From Methanobacteriota archaeon (GTDB lineage: Archaea; Halobacteriota; Bog-38; Methanoflorentales; Methanoflorentaceae): a DNA stretch of 64,000 nucleotides. Within the stretch, counting starts at the first letter, position 1; the number at the start of each line of letters is the position of its first letter. The notes beneath the pieces are model-generated. The model made no database searches. It was not told the origin of the DNA and worked only from the letters and a program-made list of their open reading frames with translations. The translations under genes and the position numbers were made by a program. The DNA lies in NCBI GenBank assembly GCA_963720465.1, contig OY970393.1, positions 2,208,001 through 2,272,000 of the forward strand, read 5' to 3'. This document shows, piece by piece, positions 12,921 through 55,098 of this stretch.

Positions 12921-13856
12921 GTGGATCGTTCGCAGCTCAGACAGAATCAAAGCGTCAGGCTGAAGATGGGCCTGCTCTTCGCGTGCCTCGCTCTCACTTT
13001 TTTGGTCTTCGGGAGCGCTTTTGCCAACGTCGCTCCCCCCCTTAATTACGCCACGCTAAAGCAAAACGGGTTCTATTTATGGGCAGTTCTAGCTCTGTGC
13101 GTGGCGTGGGTTTACGTTAAGCGAACGGAGATTCTCGACGCCGCCCGCACGGGGACCGATAGTCGATGGGTGGTCGCCGGCATAATACTTGCCAGCGCCT
13201 CTCTTGGGCTCCTATACTACGCTGCTACTTTTGTAGAATCGCTTCCGTTAACTCTATTTGCCATTGTTTTTGTCGTCGTCGCTCAATTTACGCTTTTTTT
13301 TGGAAAGGCGTCAAAAATACCGCTCATGCTGCTAGGAGTGTTCGGTATTGCAGTCGTTTTTCCGGCGCTACTCGAAAGCGCAGTGGCGGCTCCTTTCCCG
13401 AGGGCAACGGCAGTTCTTTGCGTGTCAACATTGCAATTGGCCAGGGTGCCTGTCACTTTGAGTGGGGTCACGGTAACGCTAAACAGCCTGATGGGCTACA
13501 ACATTGTTGTGAATGTCGACACGAGGTGCGCTGGAAGCGATTCGTTAGCGATATTTCTGGCGATTTTTGCCCTTATGCTCGTAGATCGAAAGCCAAGTAA
13601 CAAGGCCGTGCTCGGACTGTTTATTTTTGGCGTTGTTGGCGCGTATCTGCAGAACTTTGTGAGGCTGCTGGCGTTGTTCACGGCCGGGTACTACTATGGC
13701 GCTAACGCCCTGTGGGCAGTTCATGACTACGCAAGCTACATACTTTTTCCAGTGTGGTTTCTAGGCTTTGCGGTCATCTACCTGAAGTATGCTCGGAAGC
13801 CAGGTAATCCGGCAATCGGGCGTATGACAAGCGCTGAGAGCACGACGGAGCTCTAG
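12921..13856 (+). CDS. Exosortase/archaeosortase family membrane protein
   Basis: Multi-TM protein with RCAG (catalytic Cys), QNFVR (Arg) and HD (His) in family order. Confidence 0.85.
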   Translation: MDRSQLRQNQSVRLKMGLLFACLALTFLVFGSAFANVAPPLNYATLKQNGFYLWAVLALCVAWVYVKRTEILDAARTGTDSRWVVAGIILASASLGLLYYAATFVESLPLTLFAIVFVVVAQFTLFFGKASKIPLMLLGVFGIAVVFPALLESAVAAPFPRATAVLCVSTLQLARVPVTLSGVTVTLNSLMGYNIVVNVDTRCAGSDSLAIFLAIFALMLVDRKPSNKAVLGLFIFGVVGAYLQNFVRLLALFTAGYYYGANALWAVHDYASYILFPVWFLGFAVIYLKYARKPGNPAIGRMTSAESTTEL

Positions 13857-46920: not shown

Positions 46921-47253
46921 AAGGTCGTCGTGCTGCGGTTTTTTTTGGCGGAGATTGCGACGCTCGTATCATCTTTGCGAGAGCTCTGAGCGGTTTTTGT
47001 AACTGCATCGTCTTGGAAATCAGCTAGAATGTTGAAAGCTGTGCGTGGAAAAAGGATTCTAAAATAGCCCGCAGCACAGCGTGACACGGGCGCCGGCCCC
47101 GTAAAAAAAGCGGAAGGATTATTAAACAAGAGCCACACAAAAAAATATAACTATAATTATAAAGATATTGTTTGCATCGACATGCTGACATAACTGTGCC
47201 ATTCGGACTGAAAACAATTTATAGTCCGCTCGCGGAAAAAAACAACGATCGCA

Positions 47254-48465
47254 ATGTTGAAAAGACACGGACCGACAGAGAGAAAATTACTCATTGGTCT
47301 TTCGGTGGCGCTTATAATTTTGATGTGCTGCTCCGCAACGGGCGTTGCGGCGGCGCAGCCATCAGCGTCTTCGGCCACAACCACGGCTGCGAGCTCGAAA
47401 TACCCGCCGTATCCGGTGAACCTTTACGAGTTTTATCTGTCGACCTGCCCGCATTGCCAGGCGCTCGCGCCGCACATTGCCGCACTGAAAGCCGAATATC
47501 CAACATTGCACGTGTATCAGTACGAAACGTCAAATTCTGCGAATTACAGCCTTTTTCAGACGTTCCAGAGCGCGTACGGAGTGAAGTTTGACACCGTCCC
47601 TAGCGTTTTTGTCGGAACGCAGTTTTGGCAATCGGACCTTGACGCGCCGCAGATTGCAGCAGCTGTTGCGCAAGCCATTCAACACGGAGCGACAGGCAAG
47701 GGTGACACAATAACCGGCAACTCTGTGCCAATGCCGAAACCAGGGACCCAGGATTCGACTACCGCTGGGACATTAGTGAATACGCCGCCTCTGCCACTGC
47801 CGCTTTTCATCACGACCGGCATCATAAGCGGCATGAATCCGTGCGTCTTTTCGGTCCTCATATTTTTGATGGGGACGATCGCTCTCACAGGTTCGCGTGC
47901 GCGAGCCCTTGCCATTGGCGTGACTTACATCGCGACGGTGTTCATCGTCTTCTTCCTTTCGGCACTTGCTATTGTGCAGTTCGTTCAAGTCATAGGCCTA
48001 CAGAACTTAGACCTGACTAAGACCGTGATTGGCATTTTCCTCCTCGTCGTTGGTATCGTATCGATCAAGGATTTCTTTTGGTACAACCGCTGGTTCAGTT
48101 TTAAGATCCCAACCTTCACGAAACACAGCATCAGCACTCTCGGGAACACCGGGTCTTTTCTTGCTATTATAGGGCTCGGCATCATCGCGACGATTGCCGC
48201 TTTGCCGTGCACGCTCGGTCCGTTTACCTTCTTCTCCACCACCTATTTGACCAGCATGGCCGCGATGCAATACAACCTCTACGTTGCCCTCTTCGCATTA
48301 GCATTCATCATACCGATGATCATCGTTTTTGTTGCCATATACGCCGTCAAGGTGGGAACGGACAGGGCAGAAGCATGGAGAATGCAATCAGCGCGCTATA
48401 TGAGGCTAGTGGCCGGGGTCCTAATGGTCACGTTTGGTCTCCTGCTCGTGCTCAAAGTGTTCTAA
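47254..48465 (+). CDS. Secreted thioredoxin-fold domain fused to a CcdA/DsbD-like membrane domain
   Basis: Signal peptide, CPHC, then TM region with NPC and LPC motifs. Confidence 0.8.
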   Translation: MLKRHGPTERKLLIGLSVALIILMCCSATGVAAAQPSASSATTTAASSKYPPYPVNLYEFYLSTCPHCQALAPHIAALKAEYPTLHVYQYETSNSANYSLFQTFQSAYGVKFDTVPSVFVGTQFWQSDLDAPQIAAAVAQAIQHGATGKGDTITGNSVPMPKPGTQDSTTAGTLVNTPPLPLPLFITTGIISGMNPCVFSVLIFLMGTIALTGSRARALAIGVTYIATVFIVFFLSALAIVQFVQVIGLQNLDLTKTVIGIFLLVVGIVSIKDFFWYNRWFSFKIPTFTKHSISTLGNTGSFLAIIGLGIIATIAALPCTLGPFTFFSTTYLTSMAAMQYNLYVALFALAFIIPMIIVFVAIYAVKVGTDRAEAWRMQSARYMRLVAGVLMVTFGLLLVLKVF

Positions 48466-48655
48466 GGCAGGCTAGTCTTTCGGTAGCGCAGCCTCGCGAG
48501 GCGCTTCTCAAGCCGTCCTGCTGACAGCTGCGTGGTTTTTTTAGCATAGTCGAGTTAAGCCGGACTATTGCGCGCGGCGACTATAGTTATGTTAAAGGCC
48601 GTGAGCAAACTCACGTCGACAAGGAAACGACAAGACCAAGTATCTTGTCTGCTTT

Positions 48656-49234
48656 ATGGCATCACGTCGTGATTCGATGCATCACACATATCGAGACGAA
48701 GCCGAAAGGCGAACGTGGCAGAACCCTGAAATGATTCTTGCGGAAGTTGGGGTCACGGTCGGCGATGTGTTTATAGATTTGGCCTGCGGTTTTGGGTTTT
48801 TTGCGATTCCCGCAGCAAAAATAGTTGGCCCGAAAGGTGTCGTTTGCGGCGTTGACATTGACAAAGAAGCTTTGGAAGAACTACGTGAAAAAGCTGCGCT
48901 TGTCGGCCTGCGAAATCTGCGGCTAACACTCGCCGCGGCAGAAGATGTCGTTCTGTGCGAGCAGTGCGCTGATAAAGTGTTCGTTGGGATAGCGCTTCAC
49001 GATTTCAAAGATCCGCTCAAGGTTTTGCAGAACGTGAAGAGGGCCCTCAAAACGGGCGGCAGATTGGTAAATCTAGATTGGAAGAAAGAGCAAACGCCTT
49101 TCGGCCCTCCTCTCGAAATACGGTTCAGTGAGAGCGAAGCCGTTTCTCTCATCGAAAGAGCAGGATTTAAAGTCGTCTCAGTAAAAGATTCAGGGCCCTA
49201 TCACTACATGATTTCAGCGAATTTGCTTCAGTAG
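48656..49234 (+). CDS. Class I SAM-dependent methyltransferase
   Basis: DLACGFG, VDID, LHD, LKTGG..DW...GPP. Confidence 0.88.
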   Translation: MASRRDSMHHTYRDEAERRTWQNPEMILAEVGVTVGDVFIDLACGFGFFAIPAAKIVGPKGVVCGVDIDKEALEELREKAALVGLRNLRLTLAAAEDVVLCEQCADKVFVGIALHDFKDPLKVLQNVKRALKTGGRLVNLDWKKEQTPFGPPLEIRFSESEAVSLIERAGFKVVSVKDSGPYHYMISANLLQ

Positions 49235-49353
49235 ACTCGTGCTAGGCTCAAAACAGGCAGGAACACTTACTTTCTTCGCCAATTTTGATAATGTTATATC
49301 CTCTCGAACCCATTTATTAAGAAGAACGTCTAGATCAGCAAAGGAGTCTGGTT

Positions 49354-49581
49354 TTGCCGACTTATCCAGTCTCTATGTGTTTGGTCTGCAAGCATTATCG
49401 AAAAGCGCAGCGATGTGAAGTTTTTCCGGCACGAATACCTCAGGCCATTCTTACTGGCAGATTTGATCACAGAAAACGACACGACGGAGACCGTGGAATT
49501 AGATTTCAGCCAAGAGATGATGTCAGCCAAGTAGAGTTAGAAAGCATTTTAAGCATATTCGACAAAAAAACCGCTTTTTGA
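49354..49581 (+). CDS. Small Cys/His hypothetical protein, possibly of mobile-element origin
   Basis: CLVCKH...C.VFP..IP..IL.G.FDH....GD.GIRF pattern recalled from phage-associated small proteins. Confidence 0.6.
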   Translation: MPTYPVSMCLVCKHYRKAQRCEVFPARIPQAILTGRFDHRKRHDGDRGIRFQPRDDVSQVELESILSIFDKKTAF

Positions 49582-50300
49582 GCGCGGTTTTAACTTTAAA
49601 TCTGCAAGTGACGCCAGTGCGCGTGTAACAGTTTAGAGTTCTGCGAAATTGCCTAAACTCTCACTTTTGCCTGATTCAGGCGTGAAAATTGCCTAATTGT
49701 TCCGAGAAAAACGAGGGTCTTAGAAAATAGTTGCTATGCTTACCAAGCAAGGTTGAAGTTGAAGTGCTTAATTTTGTTACATGTATTCTTAATTAAAGTG
49801 GTTGCTAAAGTATTAATGCTATAATATAGATTCTTATATTATTACAATTTATATATTACTTATATTAATAATCTGAGAATACCATTTATTCGGATTTTTA
49901 CAAAAATTCGTAATATAATATTCAACTCTCATTTTAGCTAAAAAGTCCAAATTCGCGGTTATTAAGGTATCTTTTTTCCAATATAACTCAAAAAATATAG
50001 AAATCGTACGGTCTTGACCAAATAACTATGATTTTTTGGCTCTGCGCTATTTGCTGACGTCATATGAGAACGGAAATCGTAGTGATTAGTAGAAGAGGTC
50101 CTGAGGAAGATATCTCCAATTAGATCTGCATTCTAACACTTAGTTAATCCGTGGTGTTAACAATATGATACCAAAAATAGTCGTGAGAAATTCAATGATA
50201 TCAAAAACCAAAAAATTAGTTAATAGATGAGAGTAATTCTTTGTACCAGGGGTTTTTAGGCCACTAGCTCTCACTTTTATAAAAATAGCTGGAAAAAAAC

Positions 50301-50834
50301 TTAAAATGAAACCTTTCCATACGCTTCCCTCAAATCATCGTCTTTGAATTGAAGGTAGACCTGCGTTATGCTAAGGCTGGAATGCCCTAATAGCAGCTGT
50401 AAACCCGTAGATCCATTCCTGACCGTACTAAATGTATAGTAAAACTATGGCGAAGCGTGGGCGGATGGATCTGAACACCTATCATATTCCCGTATCTCTT
50501 GCTTAAGTTGGAAACTTGTGCTCGACTGATAGGGAAAATAGGTTGATCCTCAGGGGTATTTAGTGCTAAGACATAATCGAAGAGCATTTTGAGAGTTTCT
50601 TGGTCAAGAACTACCCTCCGCTGCCGCCCTCCCTTGGCTTTTCGTGTGTTCACTACGTTATTCTTGAATTCGATATCGTTCGGTGTGACATTGATGACTT
50701 CGCTCACTCGTACTCCGGTTCGCCACATGAACCGCACCAGCATAGTCCCGTTGACTGCACGTTTTGGCAGCATGCAGCATCTCATCGACCTGCTCTTTTT
50801 CAAGATAGTTGGGAATTTTGGTCACATTTGACAA
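50301..50834 (-). pseudogene. Tyrosine recombinase pseudogene, paralog of 50993-51529
   Basis: Colinear with the neighbour; frameshifts near 50742 and 50404; HPHTLR changed to HPPTLR. Confidence 0.88.
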
Positions 50835-50992
50835 AGATATGTTTTGTTTAACCGCAAAAGCGATTCTTAGCCTGATTTGCCGTTTTTTCGATAAATTATA
50901 AAAAAAAGAAGAATTGATTTTAGCGTTATTTATAACACTGTTATAGGTGCTATAACTCTCACTTTTATAAAAAAAGCATTAAGAAAAAATGT

Positions 50993-51529
50993 TTAAAAAG
51001 CTACTTTTTCGTACGCTTCTCGTAGGTCATTATCGTTGAATTGAAGGTAAACCTGCGTAATGCTGAGGCTTGTATGCCCTAGCATGAGCTGTACACGCCT
51101 TAAATCTGTCCCGCCACGAACCATATTAATAGCAAAACTGTGTCGCAGAGTATGTGGATGTATATTAACCCCTGCCATATTTCCGTATTTTTTGACGATG
51201 CTAAATACTCGATTTCTTTGAATAGGAAAAACAGGTTGATCCTCTAGGATATTTAGTGCTAAAACATAGTCCGAAAGCATTTTGAGGGTATCTTGATCAA
51301 GCGGGACTCTCCGCTGCCGCCCTCCCTTAGCCTTTCTGATGTTAACAACACCGTTCTTATATTCAATATCCTTCGGGGTAACGTTTATGACCTCACTTAC
51401 CCGTACGCCGGTACGCCACATAAACCGGAGCAGTAAGTAATCCCGATGATTACAAGTTTTAGCAGCGTTGAGTATCTCATCGACCTGTTCTTTTTCAAGA
51501 TAATCGGGTATTTTAGTCACATGATACAA
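50993..51529 (-). CDS. Minimal tyrosine recombinase (catalytic domain only, 178 aa)
   Basis: TGVRVSE (R), KGG (K), HTLRH (HxxR), LGH, TQVY (Y). Confidence 0.93.
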   Translation of the reverse strand: MYHVTKIPDYLEKEQVDEILNAAKTCNHRDYLLLRFMWRTGVRVSEVINVTPKDIEYKNGVVNIRKAKGGRQRRVPLDQDTLKMLSDYVLALNILEDQPVFPIQRNRVFSIVKKYGNMAGVNIHPHTLRHSFAINMVRGGTDLRRVQLMLGHTSLSITQVYLQFNDNDLREAYEKVAF

Positions 51530-52115
51530 AAGATAGGTTTTGTATCTTAAAGGTTGTCATTTTGGTCTTCTTTACGATGAGATCCTCCTAGTTTATACAA
51601 TGAGGACAATTTTGGGCTAACTGAAGCACTTTTCCAATAATTCAGTTTTTATAAAATAGTGAATATTTAATTTGATTGTGATTCCCATGGATTTCGTGAG
51701 TTTGTATGTTAAGCCATCTTTCAGGTTAACGAGAATGGGTTGAAACAAAAGTGAGAGTTGAGCCTGTCTATCTCCAGACAGCTAGGTATTTTCTGACAAG
51801 GCATCTTGGGTATTGCCTATCAATATTTGCGTCAGAGATTCGTGGCTCCGGTACCGCCGAAGTTTTTGGAATGACTAGTAAGACCAGCTCTTGAAAACAA
51901 CCTGCTGCTGACCTTCGTAACAACGTCAAGTCCGCACAAAGGAATAGGTAGCAAGTGAAAGTGAGAGTTAAATGGCGGAGCTGATGAAGCCGGAAACCCG
52001 AGCACTTCTACAGGTAGATTAGGCGGTAAACGCAAGTGCGGGTGCATAGAAGCAAAAGTGAGACTAGAGGTAAGTCCTTCTTGTTCGCCTTTTTGCTGAC
52101 CGGTCGCGTGCTGCG

Positions 52116-52418
52116 TCAACGCGTCTTGTCGTCTGGTGTATCCAGTGCGCTTAAAATGTAAGGTCTTGAGGACACCTTGTGGTATTTGGGTCCTCCACCC
52201 ATCGACAAAATCCCTATGTAGCCTGCCGCCAGTAACTCGTGGAGGGCTTCTTGGACTTCGAGCTTCGTCCCGTCGACTTTTTTCTGCACCTGCCACGAGC
52301 GAAGGCCTTCGCTGCTAGACTCATAGATGCTTCTCAAAACCTTCTTTTGAAGACCGGTCATCAAAGCCACTTCACCGGGACCGTCGTGCAGCATCGGATT
52401 TAGCATAGTGACACGCAC
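52116..52418 (-). CDS. Small winged-helix-like protein
   Basis: LQKKVLRSI...VQEALHELLAAGYI helix pattern. Confidence 0.55.
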   Translation of the reverse strand: MRVTMLNPMLHDGPGEVALMTGLQKKVLRSIYESSSEGLRSWQVQKKVDGTKLEVQEALHELLAAGYIGILSMGGGPKYHKVSSRPYILSALDTPDDKTR

Positions 52419-52830
52419 CTTTCGGGATTGACCGTGTTAGTTAATCGCATATAGCTCTCCTTGTTGGCACCACCGCTGCAGAAAAACAAGAGACTTAGAC
52501 GCCTAGCCGACCAAAAAGTTTCTGTGCCACGCGCGCCGGCACCCCCTTAGACCGGCTGACAGACGTGGTCAAAGGATGCTCGAATGGCGGTTTGTCTGCG
52601 TGCAAGAGCATTTATCAACCATCCCGAGGAAATGAAACTGAGCTGAGAACATGTTGTTACACGTTACCATACCCGACGCAGATACTGGTTGTCCCCGATA
52701 CAATTCTAACAACATCTTGCTTGGTGTCGATAGACGTAAGAAACGCATGATCTGGCGCAGTTTCTATGCGATCGTTGCCCCAAATAGCTTGGCGCTCGCG
52801 TACGAAGCTTATCGTGCATAGGGTGGTTAG

Positions 52831-53295
52831 ATGGAAATGGGTTCACAAGTGCCGGCATTCTGTCTTCCGGATAAGGCCGGAGAGCAGCGGTGTTTAAGCG
52901 ATTTCAAGGGTAAGTGGGTGGTCCTTTACTTCTACCCGAGAGACAACACCAGTGGCTGTACGAGAGAAGCTATGGATTTTAGCGAACAGCTACCGGATTT
53001 TGAGAAGCACAACGCAGCAATCATCGGAATAAGCCCTGATTCGCCTGCGAGTCATGAGAAATTCGCTGAAAAGCATCAACTTCGTGTAGTGCTTTTGAGT
53101 GACGAAAAGCATGAAGTGGCGGAAACGTATGACGTCTGGAAACTAAAACGCCTATACGGGAAAGAGTATCACGGCATTGAACGGAGCACCTTTCTCATAA
53201 ACCCAGAAGGGAAGCTGGCCCAGGCTTGGAGAAACGTGAAAGTGAGCGGCCACGCTGATGCTGTCAAACGAACCCTCGAAGCGTTCATACAATAA
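52831..53295 (+). CDS. bcp: Peroxiredoxin, Bcp family
   Basis: LYFYPRDNTSGCTREA, RSTFLI. Confidence 0.95.
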   Translation: MEMGSQVPAFCLPDKAGEQRCLSDFKGKWVVLYFYPRDNTSGCTREAMDFSEQLPDFEKHNAAIIGISPDSPASHEKFAEKHQLRVVLLSDEKHEVAETYDVWKLKRLYGKEYHGIERSTFLINPEGKLAQAWRNVKVSGHADAVKRTLEAFIQ

Positions 53296-53433
53296 AAACG
53301 GCCTCAACGAGTCAGATCTGAATCTGGTAGTCGTCGCGAAGAAGCGAGGGCAGCCCTACAAACCCGATTGCAGTAGATTACGCAGAATTTACGAGTACCG
53401 CCGCCGATCCGCTCAAAGTAGGTCACAAAGAGG

Positions 53434-53742
53434 TTACCATTCCGGTTCGCCCTCTGTGCCAAATAAGCCGGAATAGAACAAGCCGTTGAAGCGATAGTCC
53501 TTGAGGTTGTCTGTAATCTCGTGCGATTCGTTGTTTTTGCTGCCCACTAACCTGCCATCTTCAAACCATCTGAGAGTGTCATAGCGGGAAAGCGCCAGAA
53601 TGACCTTCTGCTCAATGCGCTCTTCATCGGACCCTTCAGAACTCGCCGCTTTCACGTCGTCGATCGCCCATTTCGAAACGTCAGGTTTCAGCCACTGGAG
53701 GAATTCTCCCACTAGCCACGGGTACACGATAAGCGAGCGCAT
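53434..53742 (-). CDS. Hypothetical protein downstream of the DNA methyltransferase, possibly truncated
   Basis: 102-aa ORF 15 nt after the MTase stop, same strand. Confidence 0.5.
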   Translation of the reverse strand: MRSLIVYPWLVGEFLQWLKPDVSKWAIDDVKAASSEGSDEERIEQKVILALSRYDTLRWFEDGRLVGSKNNESHEITDNLKDYRFNGLFYSGLFGTEGEPEW

Positions 53743-53757
53743 GCTACTCTCTGCCTT

Positions 53758-55098
53758 TTAGGTGGACTCATCATCCTTCTTGAAGATTAAAACCTTTTCC
53801 TTTTGCATTATGTTGTACAGGCCAAAGATGGTCTTGTCGATGCTTCTTGTGAGTCGCAGTCCAATTCCGCTTGCGTGTTCCGTAATGAGCTCGGCAGATT
53901 GTAGTGACGTGCCGCCAAAGACGGCATTCCCAATAACGATCAGAGCGTATTTGTTTGGCTTCAATACGCGCATCATCTCGTCTAAACAGCCCTTTATGTC
54001 CTCATCGTAAAGGCGTACCCGGTCTTTCATCCGACCCCGCAACCCAATGAACTGTTCCCGGATCTCACTCGTATCAAATCCAAGGGCCTCAAGCGCGTGC
54101 GCATCGTTCTTGATATAATCGAGTGCAATCGAGTACGGAGGAGACGTGATTATACCATCGATGCTGTTATCCCGCACAGGCAGTGCGCGCGCGTCGCCGC
54201 GTTCAATAGTTGCACATCCCAGCGTTAGGCCGAGGTCCTTTCGGATCTGATCGTAGTCGGCAACCGACTGGACCATTAGTTTGGTTTTTGAGGCAAGTGC
54301 CGCAGCAGCGTCTTTTCTTCGTCGCACGCTATCGCTTAACGCTACCAGTTGGGCCAAGCGAAAGAAGTCCCCGACCCGTTGGTCTGTATCCACGGACATT
54401 GTCGACGTTGCTTCGTGCAGCGACGTGTTTGCCGCGTTTACTTTCGAAAGCTCCGCGCAGCGTTCTCGTATCTTGTCGATGACCTCGTGCGAGACGGTCT
54501 TGACCCTGCTCTGCAGAACGCACAGAGGCGAGGCATCGAACCCGACGCAGTTAACGCCCAATAATTGGGCCTCGAGCGCCGTCGTGCCGCTTCCGACAAA
54601 GGGATCCAAGACGGTGTCTCCCGGTCCCAGTCCGATTATGTTGAGCGCCGCTCGGACCAATTGCGGGTGGAATTTGCCTTTGTAGGGATATATCCAGTGT
54701 GTGAGATACTGGTTGACCGAACGCGTGCGATTTTTTCGCGAAATGTAAACGTAATCGGTGTCCTCCCCTCTGACCGTTTGAAAATATGCGAGCTGCCTCT
54801 TGAGTCGTTCATTATCGTCGACATCGAGCAGCCTGAAGCTCGAACACCCGTCGGTCATCTCGAAAACGGCTCCCAGAGACCGGAGTTCGAGGCCCGCTAG
54901 GATGAGTTCGTAAATGAACTGAACGTTGTCAAATAGGCGCGCCTGGTCGTGTAACGGGCTTTCTTCTTGTTTTTTCAAAGGTGCGTTGTTTGCAAGGCGT
55001 GACTTGTCGTTCACGTTATTTTCTGCCTCATAACCGTTTTTTAAATGCAAAGATAAAGTGTAGGTGACTTTATCGCTGAGCCGTACAGAGGATCCCAC
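53758..55098 (-). CDS. N4-cytosine/N6-adenine DNA methyltransferase
   Basis: HWIYPYKGKFHP, LDPFVGSGTT, ITSPPY. Confidence 0.9.
   Translation of the reverse strand: MGSSVRLSDKVTYTLSLHLKNGYEAENNVNDKSRLANNAPLKKQEESPLHDQARLFDNVQFIYELILAGLELRSLGAVFEMTDGCSSFRLLDVDDNERLKRQLAYFQTVRGEDTDYVYISRKNRTRSVNQYLTHWIYPYKGKFHPQLVRAALNIIGLGPGDTVLDPFVGSGTTALEAQLLGVNCVGFDASPLCVLQSRVKTVSHEVIDKIRERCAELSKVNAANTSLHEATSTMSVDTDQRVGDFFRLAQLVALSDSVRRRKDAAAALASKTKLMVQSVADYDQIRKDLGLTLGCATIERGDARALPVRDNSIDGIITSPPYSIALDYIKNDAHALEALGFDTSEIREQFIGLRGRMKDRVRLYDEDIKGCLDEMMRVLKPNKYALIVIGNAVFGGTSLQSAELITEHASGIGLRLTRSIDKTIFGLYNIMQKEKVLIFKKDDEST

Follow-up and report, generated by a model that had tools for sequence, protein, structure and literature searches.

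The 64-kb stretch of Methanobacteriota archaeon contig OY970393.1 analysed here (the window, whose positions are used unless a genome is named; the source genome is this single contig of 2,313,764 bp) carries a locus at which an intact gene for a tyrosine recombinase reduced to its catalytic domain (REC1) abuts a 28-bp dif-like palindrome (P) and is enclosed by converging copies of an asymmetric 13-mer, AACTCTCACTTTT. Comparison with relatives establishes the anatomy of the locus, its conservation, the polarity of the 13-mer, the covariation of P with the recombinase and differences between genomes at the level of whole cassettes. Our preferred reading, held tentatively and at slightly less than an even chance, is that of a vertically kept recombination module with P as the core site and the 13-mer as a polar boundary or accessory element.

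Such a module would be chromosomal and belong to one genus of peat and wetland archaea, with a looser form in the sister genus. Its core would be an array of one to three cassettes of Xer-like catalytic-domain-only recombinases, one intact and one decayed in the source genome, each beginning with its own 28-bp P, in which arms of 9-11 bp ending in AAAA/TTTT flank a 6-bp spacer and which abuts the start codon, and ending with one 13-mer approximately 25 nt beyond the stop. Co-evolving with the protein, occurring once in the genome and never having a like copy at its side, P is the candidate site bound and cut by the recombinase and, because of its location, probably also the recombinase's own operator. 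The 13-mer, in turn, would not be a self-sufficient crossover site; because it is the same behind every subtype, has stable direct copies and lacks a second arm, it is better understood as a shared polar boundary or accessory element, presumably with a reader common to all subtypes, be it a conserved recombinase surface or a host factor, and it may mark the ends of segments gained, lost and re-ordered in evolution. Binding and cleavage by REC1, as well as rearrangement at the present day, are predictions from these sequence comparisons.

Short Xer-like recombinases and the palindrome at their start

REC1 had been described from the sequence alone as a recombinase with a complete catalytic set lacking the N-terminal domain, and both statements hold. 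The PF00589 match (E 4.4e-37) spans profile positions 2-170 of 172 with residues 10-166 of the 178, and an alignment of 27 homologues shows R, K, HxxR, H and Y to be invariant. Translation more likely starts at the GTG at 51520 (175 aa) than at the TTG; GTG is the start used by most REC1 homologues, which are 175-204 aa long. In GTG numbering, the R-K-H-R-H pentad, as defined in the accessible part of PMC8138268, and the nucleophile are R40, K63/K65, H123, R126, H149 and Y158. By its sequence, REC1 should work like a Xer-type recombinase, while membership of the XerA, IntI and Fim families is not attained. Of the solved chains, 4A8E (P. abyssi XerA; residues 101-276, E 1.4e-32) is the closest, and the XerH structure 5JJV is among the solved relatives (E 8.5e-11), yet REC1, although the best match in the source genome to the XerA model NF040815, scores 153.7 bits (E 6.5e-45) against a cut-off of 220 and aligns with positions 92-263 only.

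All 10 PF00589 matches in the source genome belong to the short family, with only two of them intact, and neither a match to the N-terminal domains Phage_int_SAM_1 and SAM_4 (PF02899, PF13495; E up to 0.1) nor a serine recombinase was found anywhere in this genome. Among 24 genomes of the taxonomic family, four of which are single contigs, none passes the XerA cut-off; all matches to the model but one start around position 57-95 or run through stops, the exception being a 286-aa frame in G007 with 115 bits. Full XerA is present in four genomes of other families of the same phylum. A whole archaeal family, closed genomes of a lineage abundant in peat and wetland included, appears to have catalytic-domain-only enzymes. 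A bolder version of our reading, which we regard as speculative and unlikely, holds that the family swapped canonical XerA for a mini-Xer with a self-controlling dif-like site in a heterospecific cassette array, the first cassette alone standing behind a promoter-like stretch, and that the 13-mers would be polar sites of a separate factor confining recombination or fork convergence to this place.

On the gene strand P reads AAGATACAAAA-CCTATC-TTTTGTATCAT, and it is the only N6-AAAA-N6-TTTT-N6 site with matching arms in the 2.31-Mb genome. Archaeal dif consists of an 11-bp arm, a 6-bp spacer and an 11-bp arm, as stated in the available part of PMC2958812. The locus type of the window was compared in 84 loci from congeners and metagenome contigs, in which 13-mers were counted at up to one mismatch. 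Of 109 recombinase 5' ends, 103 have a P-type site; neither its A4/T4 tracts nor the 6-bp length of the spacer varies, whereas the outer arms change with the recombinase subtype, on both sides together. In the arm comparison 87% of cells pair versus 73.4% in shuffles, and double-sided changes number 47 versus 18.7, neither value being reached in any of 500 shuffles; in slid controls, pairing amounts to 37-51%. In each of the 31 arrays that hold two or three genes, no two P sites are closer than 7 differences over their 28 nt, with the spacers counted. One contig (L120) carries a hybrid P site, whose left arm is of one type while its spacer and right arm belong to another, so that the break falls on the border of arm and spacer, and another (L111) carries the right half only. 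The 11-6-11 design is also found 5' of short recombinase genes in the sister genus and in another family. In the latter, a perfect ATTTAACAAAA-N6-TTTTGTTAAAT is located just upstream of genes for 179-182-aa recombinases (L040 and L041, from G039 and G029), and the spacers, TGTGTC versus GACACA, are reverse complementary between the two genomes.

A second, tandem copy of the recombinase gene has decayed. The segment of about 690 bp between two 13-mers had been given its correct length (688 bp), although its content, the REC2 pseudogene, had been missed. REC2 shares 74% DNA identity with REC1 and has intact orthologues in several relatives, including G009 and G011, in which its palindrome, degenerate in the window (P2), reads TTTAACAAAA-CATATC-TTTTGTCAAA.

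A polar 13-mer at the borders of the cassettes

The 13-mer was scanned on both strands at up to two mismatches unless stated otherwise. All seven copies of the original prediction were recovered at their positions and on their strands, with the spacings of 268, 342, 688, 210 and 97 bp that it had reported, and perfect 13-bp inverted repeats 780 bp apart stand on either side of REC1. The window has 8 matches versus 1.56 +/- 1.41 expected, a number that 0 of 100 shuffles reached; one match is located outside the locus at 12989, the other seven within 49656-52066. A count over the whole genome, which had been proposed as a check, places the motif far above background and concentrated at the locus: 7 of the 59 matches fall into these 2.4 kb, for which approximately 0.06 are expected, and at up to one mismatch 5 of 9 do so, with a reversed-pattern control of 1. 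An additional, decayed copy (site a, Table 1) was detected beyond orf75, the small gene at the left end of the locus; in relatives its position is occupied by the clean copy AACACTCACTTTT, and contigs of the sequencing runs X5, X6 and X15 have C at 49268 and T at 49274. The variant M2 recurs at the same relative place in two relatives, the triple inverted arrangement on the M5-M7 side is also present in L067, L076 and L077, and the place of M7 is taken by the single site in G014 and by a degenerate copy in G011.

Retention of the motif beside homologous recombinases of approximately 175 aa, with the same position and polarity, is evident throughout the 84 loci. A 13-mer is positioned 14-37 nt 3' of the stop in 98 of the 110 recombinase genes with enough flank, 59 of 64 first recombinase genes are preceded by an inverted copy at 123-336 nt, and 260 of 262 copies are oriented toward the array. 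Information content around the motif is partly circular, as the copies were chosen by pattern; the gene-anchored and seven-genome alignments are free of this circularity, and in the gene-anchored alignment of 12 upstream regions the 13-mer is the sole fully conserved block (12/12) in otherwise unalignable DNA. It is unchanged behind recombinases that are just 58-65% identical to each other, and it is asymmetric and without a second arm in pooled contexts. The view of the motif as a recombination or binding site is thus supported in so far as a real, selected cis element is tied to the recombinase family; its asymmetry, its invariance between subtypes and its stable direct copies speak against a crossover site.

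Seven further genomes of the genus and 74 metagenome contigs share the order of the locus. From the left, a methyltransferase gene, site a, orf75, site b, approximately 600 bp of AT-rich non-coding DNA and site c are followed by zero to two further recombinase genes, each with its motif, the first recombinase gene, the inverted site e, variable DNA, a gene for a putative winged-helix (wHTH) protein and bcp. Between sites e and c, one, two or three recombinase genes occur in varying order of subtypes, sites c and d being the exact limits within which REC2 is present or absent, and the units in which genomes differ begin at the outer edge of P and end at the far edge of the 13-mer. The DNA from site e to the wHTH gene ranges from nothing (G014) to approximately 16 kb (G008), with a second motif copy, clean or decayed, at its far end. 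An accreting, cassette-like history, as originally proposed, is plausible because these differences (one to three cassettes, 0-16 kb of cargo) end at motif copies, although crossover at the 13-mer itself is the part of the proposal that found no support. Assignment of the cassette-level changes to a particular enzyme would be presumptive.

The same observations would be accommodated if the 13-mer were an att-like crossover site at which segments, recombinase genes included, leave as circles and are integrated at other copies, in the manner of integrons or a self-integrating mini-element. Along with the motif-bounded differences and the presence or absence of REC2, this is favoured by a loose end at 50954, from which base onward two contigs of run X6 match the window, preceded by a flank of the site-c type, by the inserts between sites e and f, by motif-bounded short segments of 62-876 bp, by the divergent orientation of the recombinase gene from the variable side, like that of intI from attI, and by the lack of any other site-specific recombinase family detected in the genome. 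We nevertheless consider it unlikely. Unlike P, the one-armed 13-mer does not covary with the subtype; identical direct copies coexist in every locus, up to eight direct and inverted copies in one, and orf75 and the 600-bp segment between them are kept; a 25-bp double copy is a plain tandem duplication; and circle or deletion joints were not seen in contigs, the only material covered. The integron crossover core GTTRRRY does follow three of the copies in the window (GTTGAAT, GTTGAGC, GTTAAAT), as had been noticed, but the link to integrons that had been drawn from it is not supported in the larger set, with 9 of 267 copies versus approximately 1 in 16 by chance. The flank of the 13-mer was also tried as a P-type arm and rejected: the mean position weight matrix (PWM) score is -4.5, compared with -6.0 for controls and +4.4 for true arms, a weak difference (Mann-Whitney p 0.014, on non-independent data).

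Inversion, the other mechanism that had been put forward, finds no support in the loci. As in FimB/FimE switches or shufflons, the recombinase would flip the DNA between opposed 13-mers, and some features are shared: FimB and FimE are enzymes of approximately 200 aa, essentially a catalytic domain, with tandem paralogues and short repeats nearby, perfect inverted repeats flank REC1, and REC1 aligns weakly but end to end with the tyrosine-type DNA invertase models NF007371 and NF007370. The scores are, however, 62 and 56.8 bits versus cut-offs of 222 and 221, and REC1 is nearer to Xer than to Fim; a segment turned round was seen in 0 of 84 loci, the 139 recombinase matches all run in one direction within their respective loci, and the order and orientation of orf75 and the 600-bp segment are constant throughout. 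Shufflons (Rci/sfx) differ further in that here the segments are whole genes or non-coding and do not provide alternative gene ends. The proposed search for rearrangement junctions yielded none at the 13-mer or P, and no inverted joints, in the four runs X4, X5, X6 and X15, as far as Logan contigs, from which rare variants are dropped, can reveal them; an apparent joint going back 695 is the tandem gene pair of a relative aligned to two paralogous copies. This explanation, already disfavoured, is scarcely credible.

Alternatively, the 13-mer might be an operator only, for instance for the wHTH or orf75 protein, which would co-regulate the genes of the island without any role in recombination. 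Between site a and orf75, close behind the former, runs a TATA-like stretch, TTTATAAAA adjoins sites c and d, and the putative wHTH gene and the Cys/His mini-protein are conserved neighbours. Regulation alone does not need the strict polarity toward the array, though, and the spacing speaks against an operator, since the 13-mer is fixed to the upstream recombinase stop and variable (approximately 120-580 nt) to the next gene start, the distance of site e varying likewise over the range given above. The 13-mer is also present in sister-genus loci in which orf75 and the wHTH gene were not found. We therefore rate this explanation as quite improbable.

Several points weigh against our preferred reading of a module with P as core site and the 13-mer as accessory element. 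A catalytic-domain-only enzyme might be inactive alone, and a protein that binds the 13-mer is putative. Two copies, in G008 and L083, face away from the array, the DNA flanking the 13-mer is only weakly P-arm-like by PWM, and orf75 and the wHTH gene were not found in the sister-genus loci just mentioned; the lack of inverted, circular or deletion joints in the contigs of the four runs counts on the same side. P could instead be an RNA hairpin in the 5' leader, in line with conserved TATA-like blocks that the gene-anchored alignment contains approximately 68 and 115 nt upstream; an RNA-library contig of a relative that spans the P region is weak evidence for it, and both compensatory change and heterotypy would also be expected from diverging hairpins. 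As regards the hairpin, four A-T pairs closing a fixed 6-nt loop, found in three lineages, seem to fit a recombinase site better than a stable hairpin.

Neighbouring genes, paralogues and chromosomal position

Table 1. Features of the locus, in window coordinates.
Feature	Position	Strand	Remarks
13-mer, site a	49262..49274	+	eighth, decayed copy, AACACTTACTTTC; 3 mismatches; ~80 nt upstream of orf75
orf75	49354..49581	+	open reading frame (ORF) for a small Cys/His-bearing protein of no known family; in congeners always between two motif copies
13-mer M1, site b	49656..49668	+	exact; 75 nt beyond orf75
AT-rich segment, ~600 bp	49669..50265		no convincing ORF; between sites b and c; homologous in all congeneric loci
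13-mer variant M2	49924..49936	+	AACTCTCATTTTA; 2 mismatches; within the AT-rich segment
13-mer M3, site c	50266..50278	+	1 mismatch; 22 nt beyond REC2 pseudogene stop
REC2 pseudogene	50301..50825	-	decayed second recombinase gene; residues 3-178 matched; 4 stops (2 TGA, 1 TAG, 1 TAA)
P2	50826..50852		degenerate palindrome of REC2 pseudogene; one base short in one A-tract
13-mer M4, site d	50954..50966	+	exact; 26 nt beyond REC1 stop
REC1	50993..51529	-	intact tyrosine recombinase, catalytic domain only; 178 aa from TTG start
P	51521..51548		dif-like palindrome, 28 bp, 11-6-11; + strand ATGATACAAAA-GATAGG-TTTTGTATCTT; abuts REC1 GTG start
13-mer M5, site e	51747..51759	-	exact, inverted; 218 nt upstream of REC1
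13-mer M6	51957..51969	-	1 mismatch, inverted
13-mer M7, site f	52054..52066	-	2 mismatches, inverted; 50 nt beyond wHTH gene stop
wHTH gene	52116..52418	-	putative winged-helix protein, 100 aa; ORF and synteny; borders variable side in most congeners

The AT-rich island noticed at the outset is real, with a GC content of 0.29-0.42 across 49600-51800 versus approximately 0.50-0.55 outside. To its left, orf75 has no Pfam or NCBIfam match and a poor AlphaFold model (pLDDT 64.5); its homologues form 16 clusters only, are all at least 54% identical and restricted to the genus, and keep C9, C12, C21 and H39 invariant. In G008 (L141, G008:C8, 2739-6160) and L083 a reversed 13-mer precedes orf75; behind that of G008 come a 3.4-kb insert, which encodes an ion-channel-like protein and two others, and then the methyltransferase gene. 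The AT-rich segment (GC 0.29-0.37), homologous across seven aligned genomes, contains small conserved blocks with GATATC palindromes (GAGATATCTC, ATGATATCAAAA) and may represent an RNA gene, a regulatory region or the remains of an old cassette; a search of Rfam in window 47000-55000 gave no match at E up to 1. Just past site d, at 50930-50945, a palindrome TTATAACACTGTTATA is found, which recurs in relatives, among them loci in which the second recombinase ORF is deleted and a 134-bp motif-bounded remnant is left. For the putative wHTH protein, a Pfam hit at E <=0.01 was not obtained, and feature-level comparison gave weak leads to MarR/IclR-like proteins (scores 0.92-0.94, fewer than 170 shared features). 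The region is bordered by genes for a small-molecule-type S-adenosylmethionine (SAM) methyltransferase (48656-49234) and a DNA methylase (N6_N4_Mtase, E 2.2e-16; 53758-55098). The flanking DNA of the locus is single-copy in the source genome, and a tRNA-derived att site was rejected, the window containing no tRNA.

Two opposed clusters of an asymmetric motif that converge on a unique dif-like site, with an AT-rich centre and a putative wHTH gene adjoining, also call to mind Ter-like barriers that would focus termination on P, or origin recognition box (ORB)-like elements round an AT-rich unwinding region, and inverted repeats flank the dif sites of archaea, namely Thermococcales, in the available part of PMC2958812. 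This is very improbable, as the Orc1/Cdc6 genes at 1.594 and 1.925 Mb are far from the locus at 2.258 Mb, GC, AT and gene-strand skew gave no usable origin or terminus signal in the source genome, the 13-mer travels with each recombinase cassette, and the sister genus has just one to three copies. The cumulative AT skew has its minimum at approximately 0.45 Mb and its maximum, near the locus, at approximately 2.08-2.25 Mb, with a small amplitude and in disagreement with the other skews.

The sister genus possesses a looser version of the locus, in which a near-copy of the 13-mer is located 123 nt upstream of the gene and one or two further copies approximately 4 kb downstream, past three unrelated genes. 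In L145, L050 and L144 conserved genes behind the recombinase orthologue encode an RDD-like membrane protein, an EamA-like transporter and a TFE-like transcription factor, putative names that come from the translations, and 13-mers are positioned upstream of the TFE-like gene.

Beyond the locus, a search with the REC1 protein returned 15 short-family matches in the source genome, two intact and most broken; example paralogues (G000) are at 1136055-1136573, 1889956-1890456 and 1544441-1544650. Closed genomes of the sister genus have 34 (G018) and 60 (G022) matches, often in tandem or divergent clusters. Flanks of the paralogues in the same genome are without the 13-mer, their likeness to the locus being confined to coding DNA. 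Those at approximately 1136, 1544 and 1865 kb share an upstream block of approximately 150 nt that ends in a palindrome of the GCCGATAA-N6-TTTTCGGC type, those at 1883, 1890 and 1897 kb a downstream block, and such flanks suggest further recombinase-plus-site units, possibly with other specificities.

The many broken family members raise the question whether the locus is a graveyard, its genes decaying integrases of mobile elements, P a leader hairpin or an old att site and the 13-mers functionless terminal repeats. One of the two copies in the window is a pseudogene, and at six of the 12 recombinase 3' ends without a 13-mer the gene end has been swapped for a multi-copy repeat. Distinctly improbable nonetheless, this explanation is countered by a locus that is syntenic in every congener where it is assembled, by a first recombinase gene intact in most loci, by invariant catalytic residues and by the retention of 13-mer and P where the flanks have diverged beyond alignment. 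The repeat in question is short and resembles a miniature inverted-repeat transposable element (MITE) or insertion sequence (IS); it took the gene 3' end and the 13-mer in L076, L077, L127, G003 (L047), L105 and L106, and dozens of partial copies are present in the source genome, for example at 330-383 kb and 2.29-2.31 Mb.

Relation to known recombination systems and significance

XerA/dif is among the closest known counterparts of the module: the catalytic domain of REC1 is nearest to XerA and P has the 11-6-11 form of dif and is unique in the genome, a likeness of form with a putative likeness of function. REC1 is nonetheless not a XerA member, lacking the core-binding domain and remaining below the 220-bit cut-off. 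Whereas the Thermococcales dif is not adjacent to xerA according to the part of PMC2958812 available, P abuts the gene, gene-plus-site cassettes of different specificity stand in tandem, and a polar 13-mer is added.

A target beside its own gene is also a property of the bacterial single-recombinase Xer systems XerS/difSL and XerH/difH, but their enzymes are full-length, with approximately 360 aa and core-binding domains, and neither cassette arrays nor a flanking polar motif are known from them. With integrons the locus shares a recombinase gene that faces away from the variable region, segments bounded by one short repeat and a number of cassettes that varies between strains. REC1 is, as had been argued from its length, no IntI; it is without the IntI-specific parts and scores 84.3 bits versus a cut-off of 265 (TIGR02249) and 58.4 versus 435 (NF011946), over short stretches only. 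GTTRRRY is rare at the 13-mers, as described above, and the 'cassettes' include the recombinase genes themselves. As for attC-like hairpins, pooled contexts contain no conserved inverted repeat beside the 13-mer, a dedicated model search not having been made; isolated hairpins are found beside M1, M5 and one site in G014.

In Acinetobacter, pdif modules use the host XerC/D and 28-bp sites as boundaries; they, too, are DNA modules bounded by Xer-type sites, while here the boundary is a 13-mer that differs from the palindromic site, and the locus has a fixed chromosomal place. RIT elements, mentioned in the accessible part of PMC8138268, likewise place tandem tyrosine recombinase genes between inverted repeats, but comprise three different full-length recombinases (RitA, RitB and RitC) and are mobile and multi-copy, as opposed to the one to three copies of one short family in a fixed syntenic place with single-copy flanks.

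Tyrosine recombinases are all classed as CB+CAT or AB+CB+CAT in the part of PMC8138268 available, and the short enzymes are notable because core-binding and catalytic domains are generally described as needed. Catalytic-domain-only Xer-like recombinases, this 13-mer and this locus do not figure in the relevant passages of PMC8371274, PMC2958812 and PMC8138268. A literature search, which does not prove absence from print, did not turn up the combination of catalytic-domain-only enzymes, a covarying dif-like site abutting the gene, heterospecific tandem cassettes and a polar 13-mer.

Should the genes be inactive relics, the deep conservation of the 13-mer and P would still need explaining. If the enzymes are active, they and their palindromes would be the smallest natural recombinase-plus-site pairs and would supply genome engineering with naturally heterospecific pairs of interest to it, and the polar 13-mer would constitute a new accessory or boundary element. 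For the archaea themselves, active enzymes would offer an answer to how chromosome dimers are resolved without XerA.

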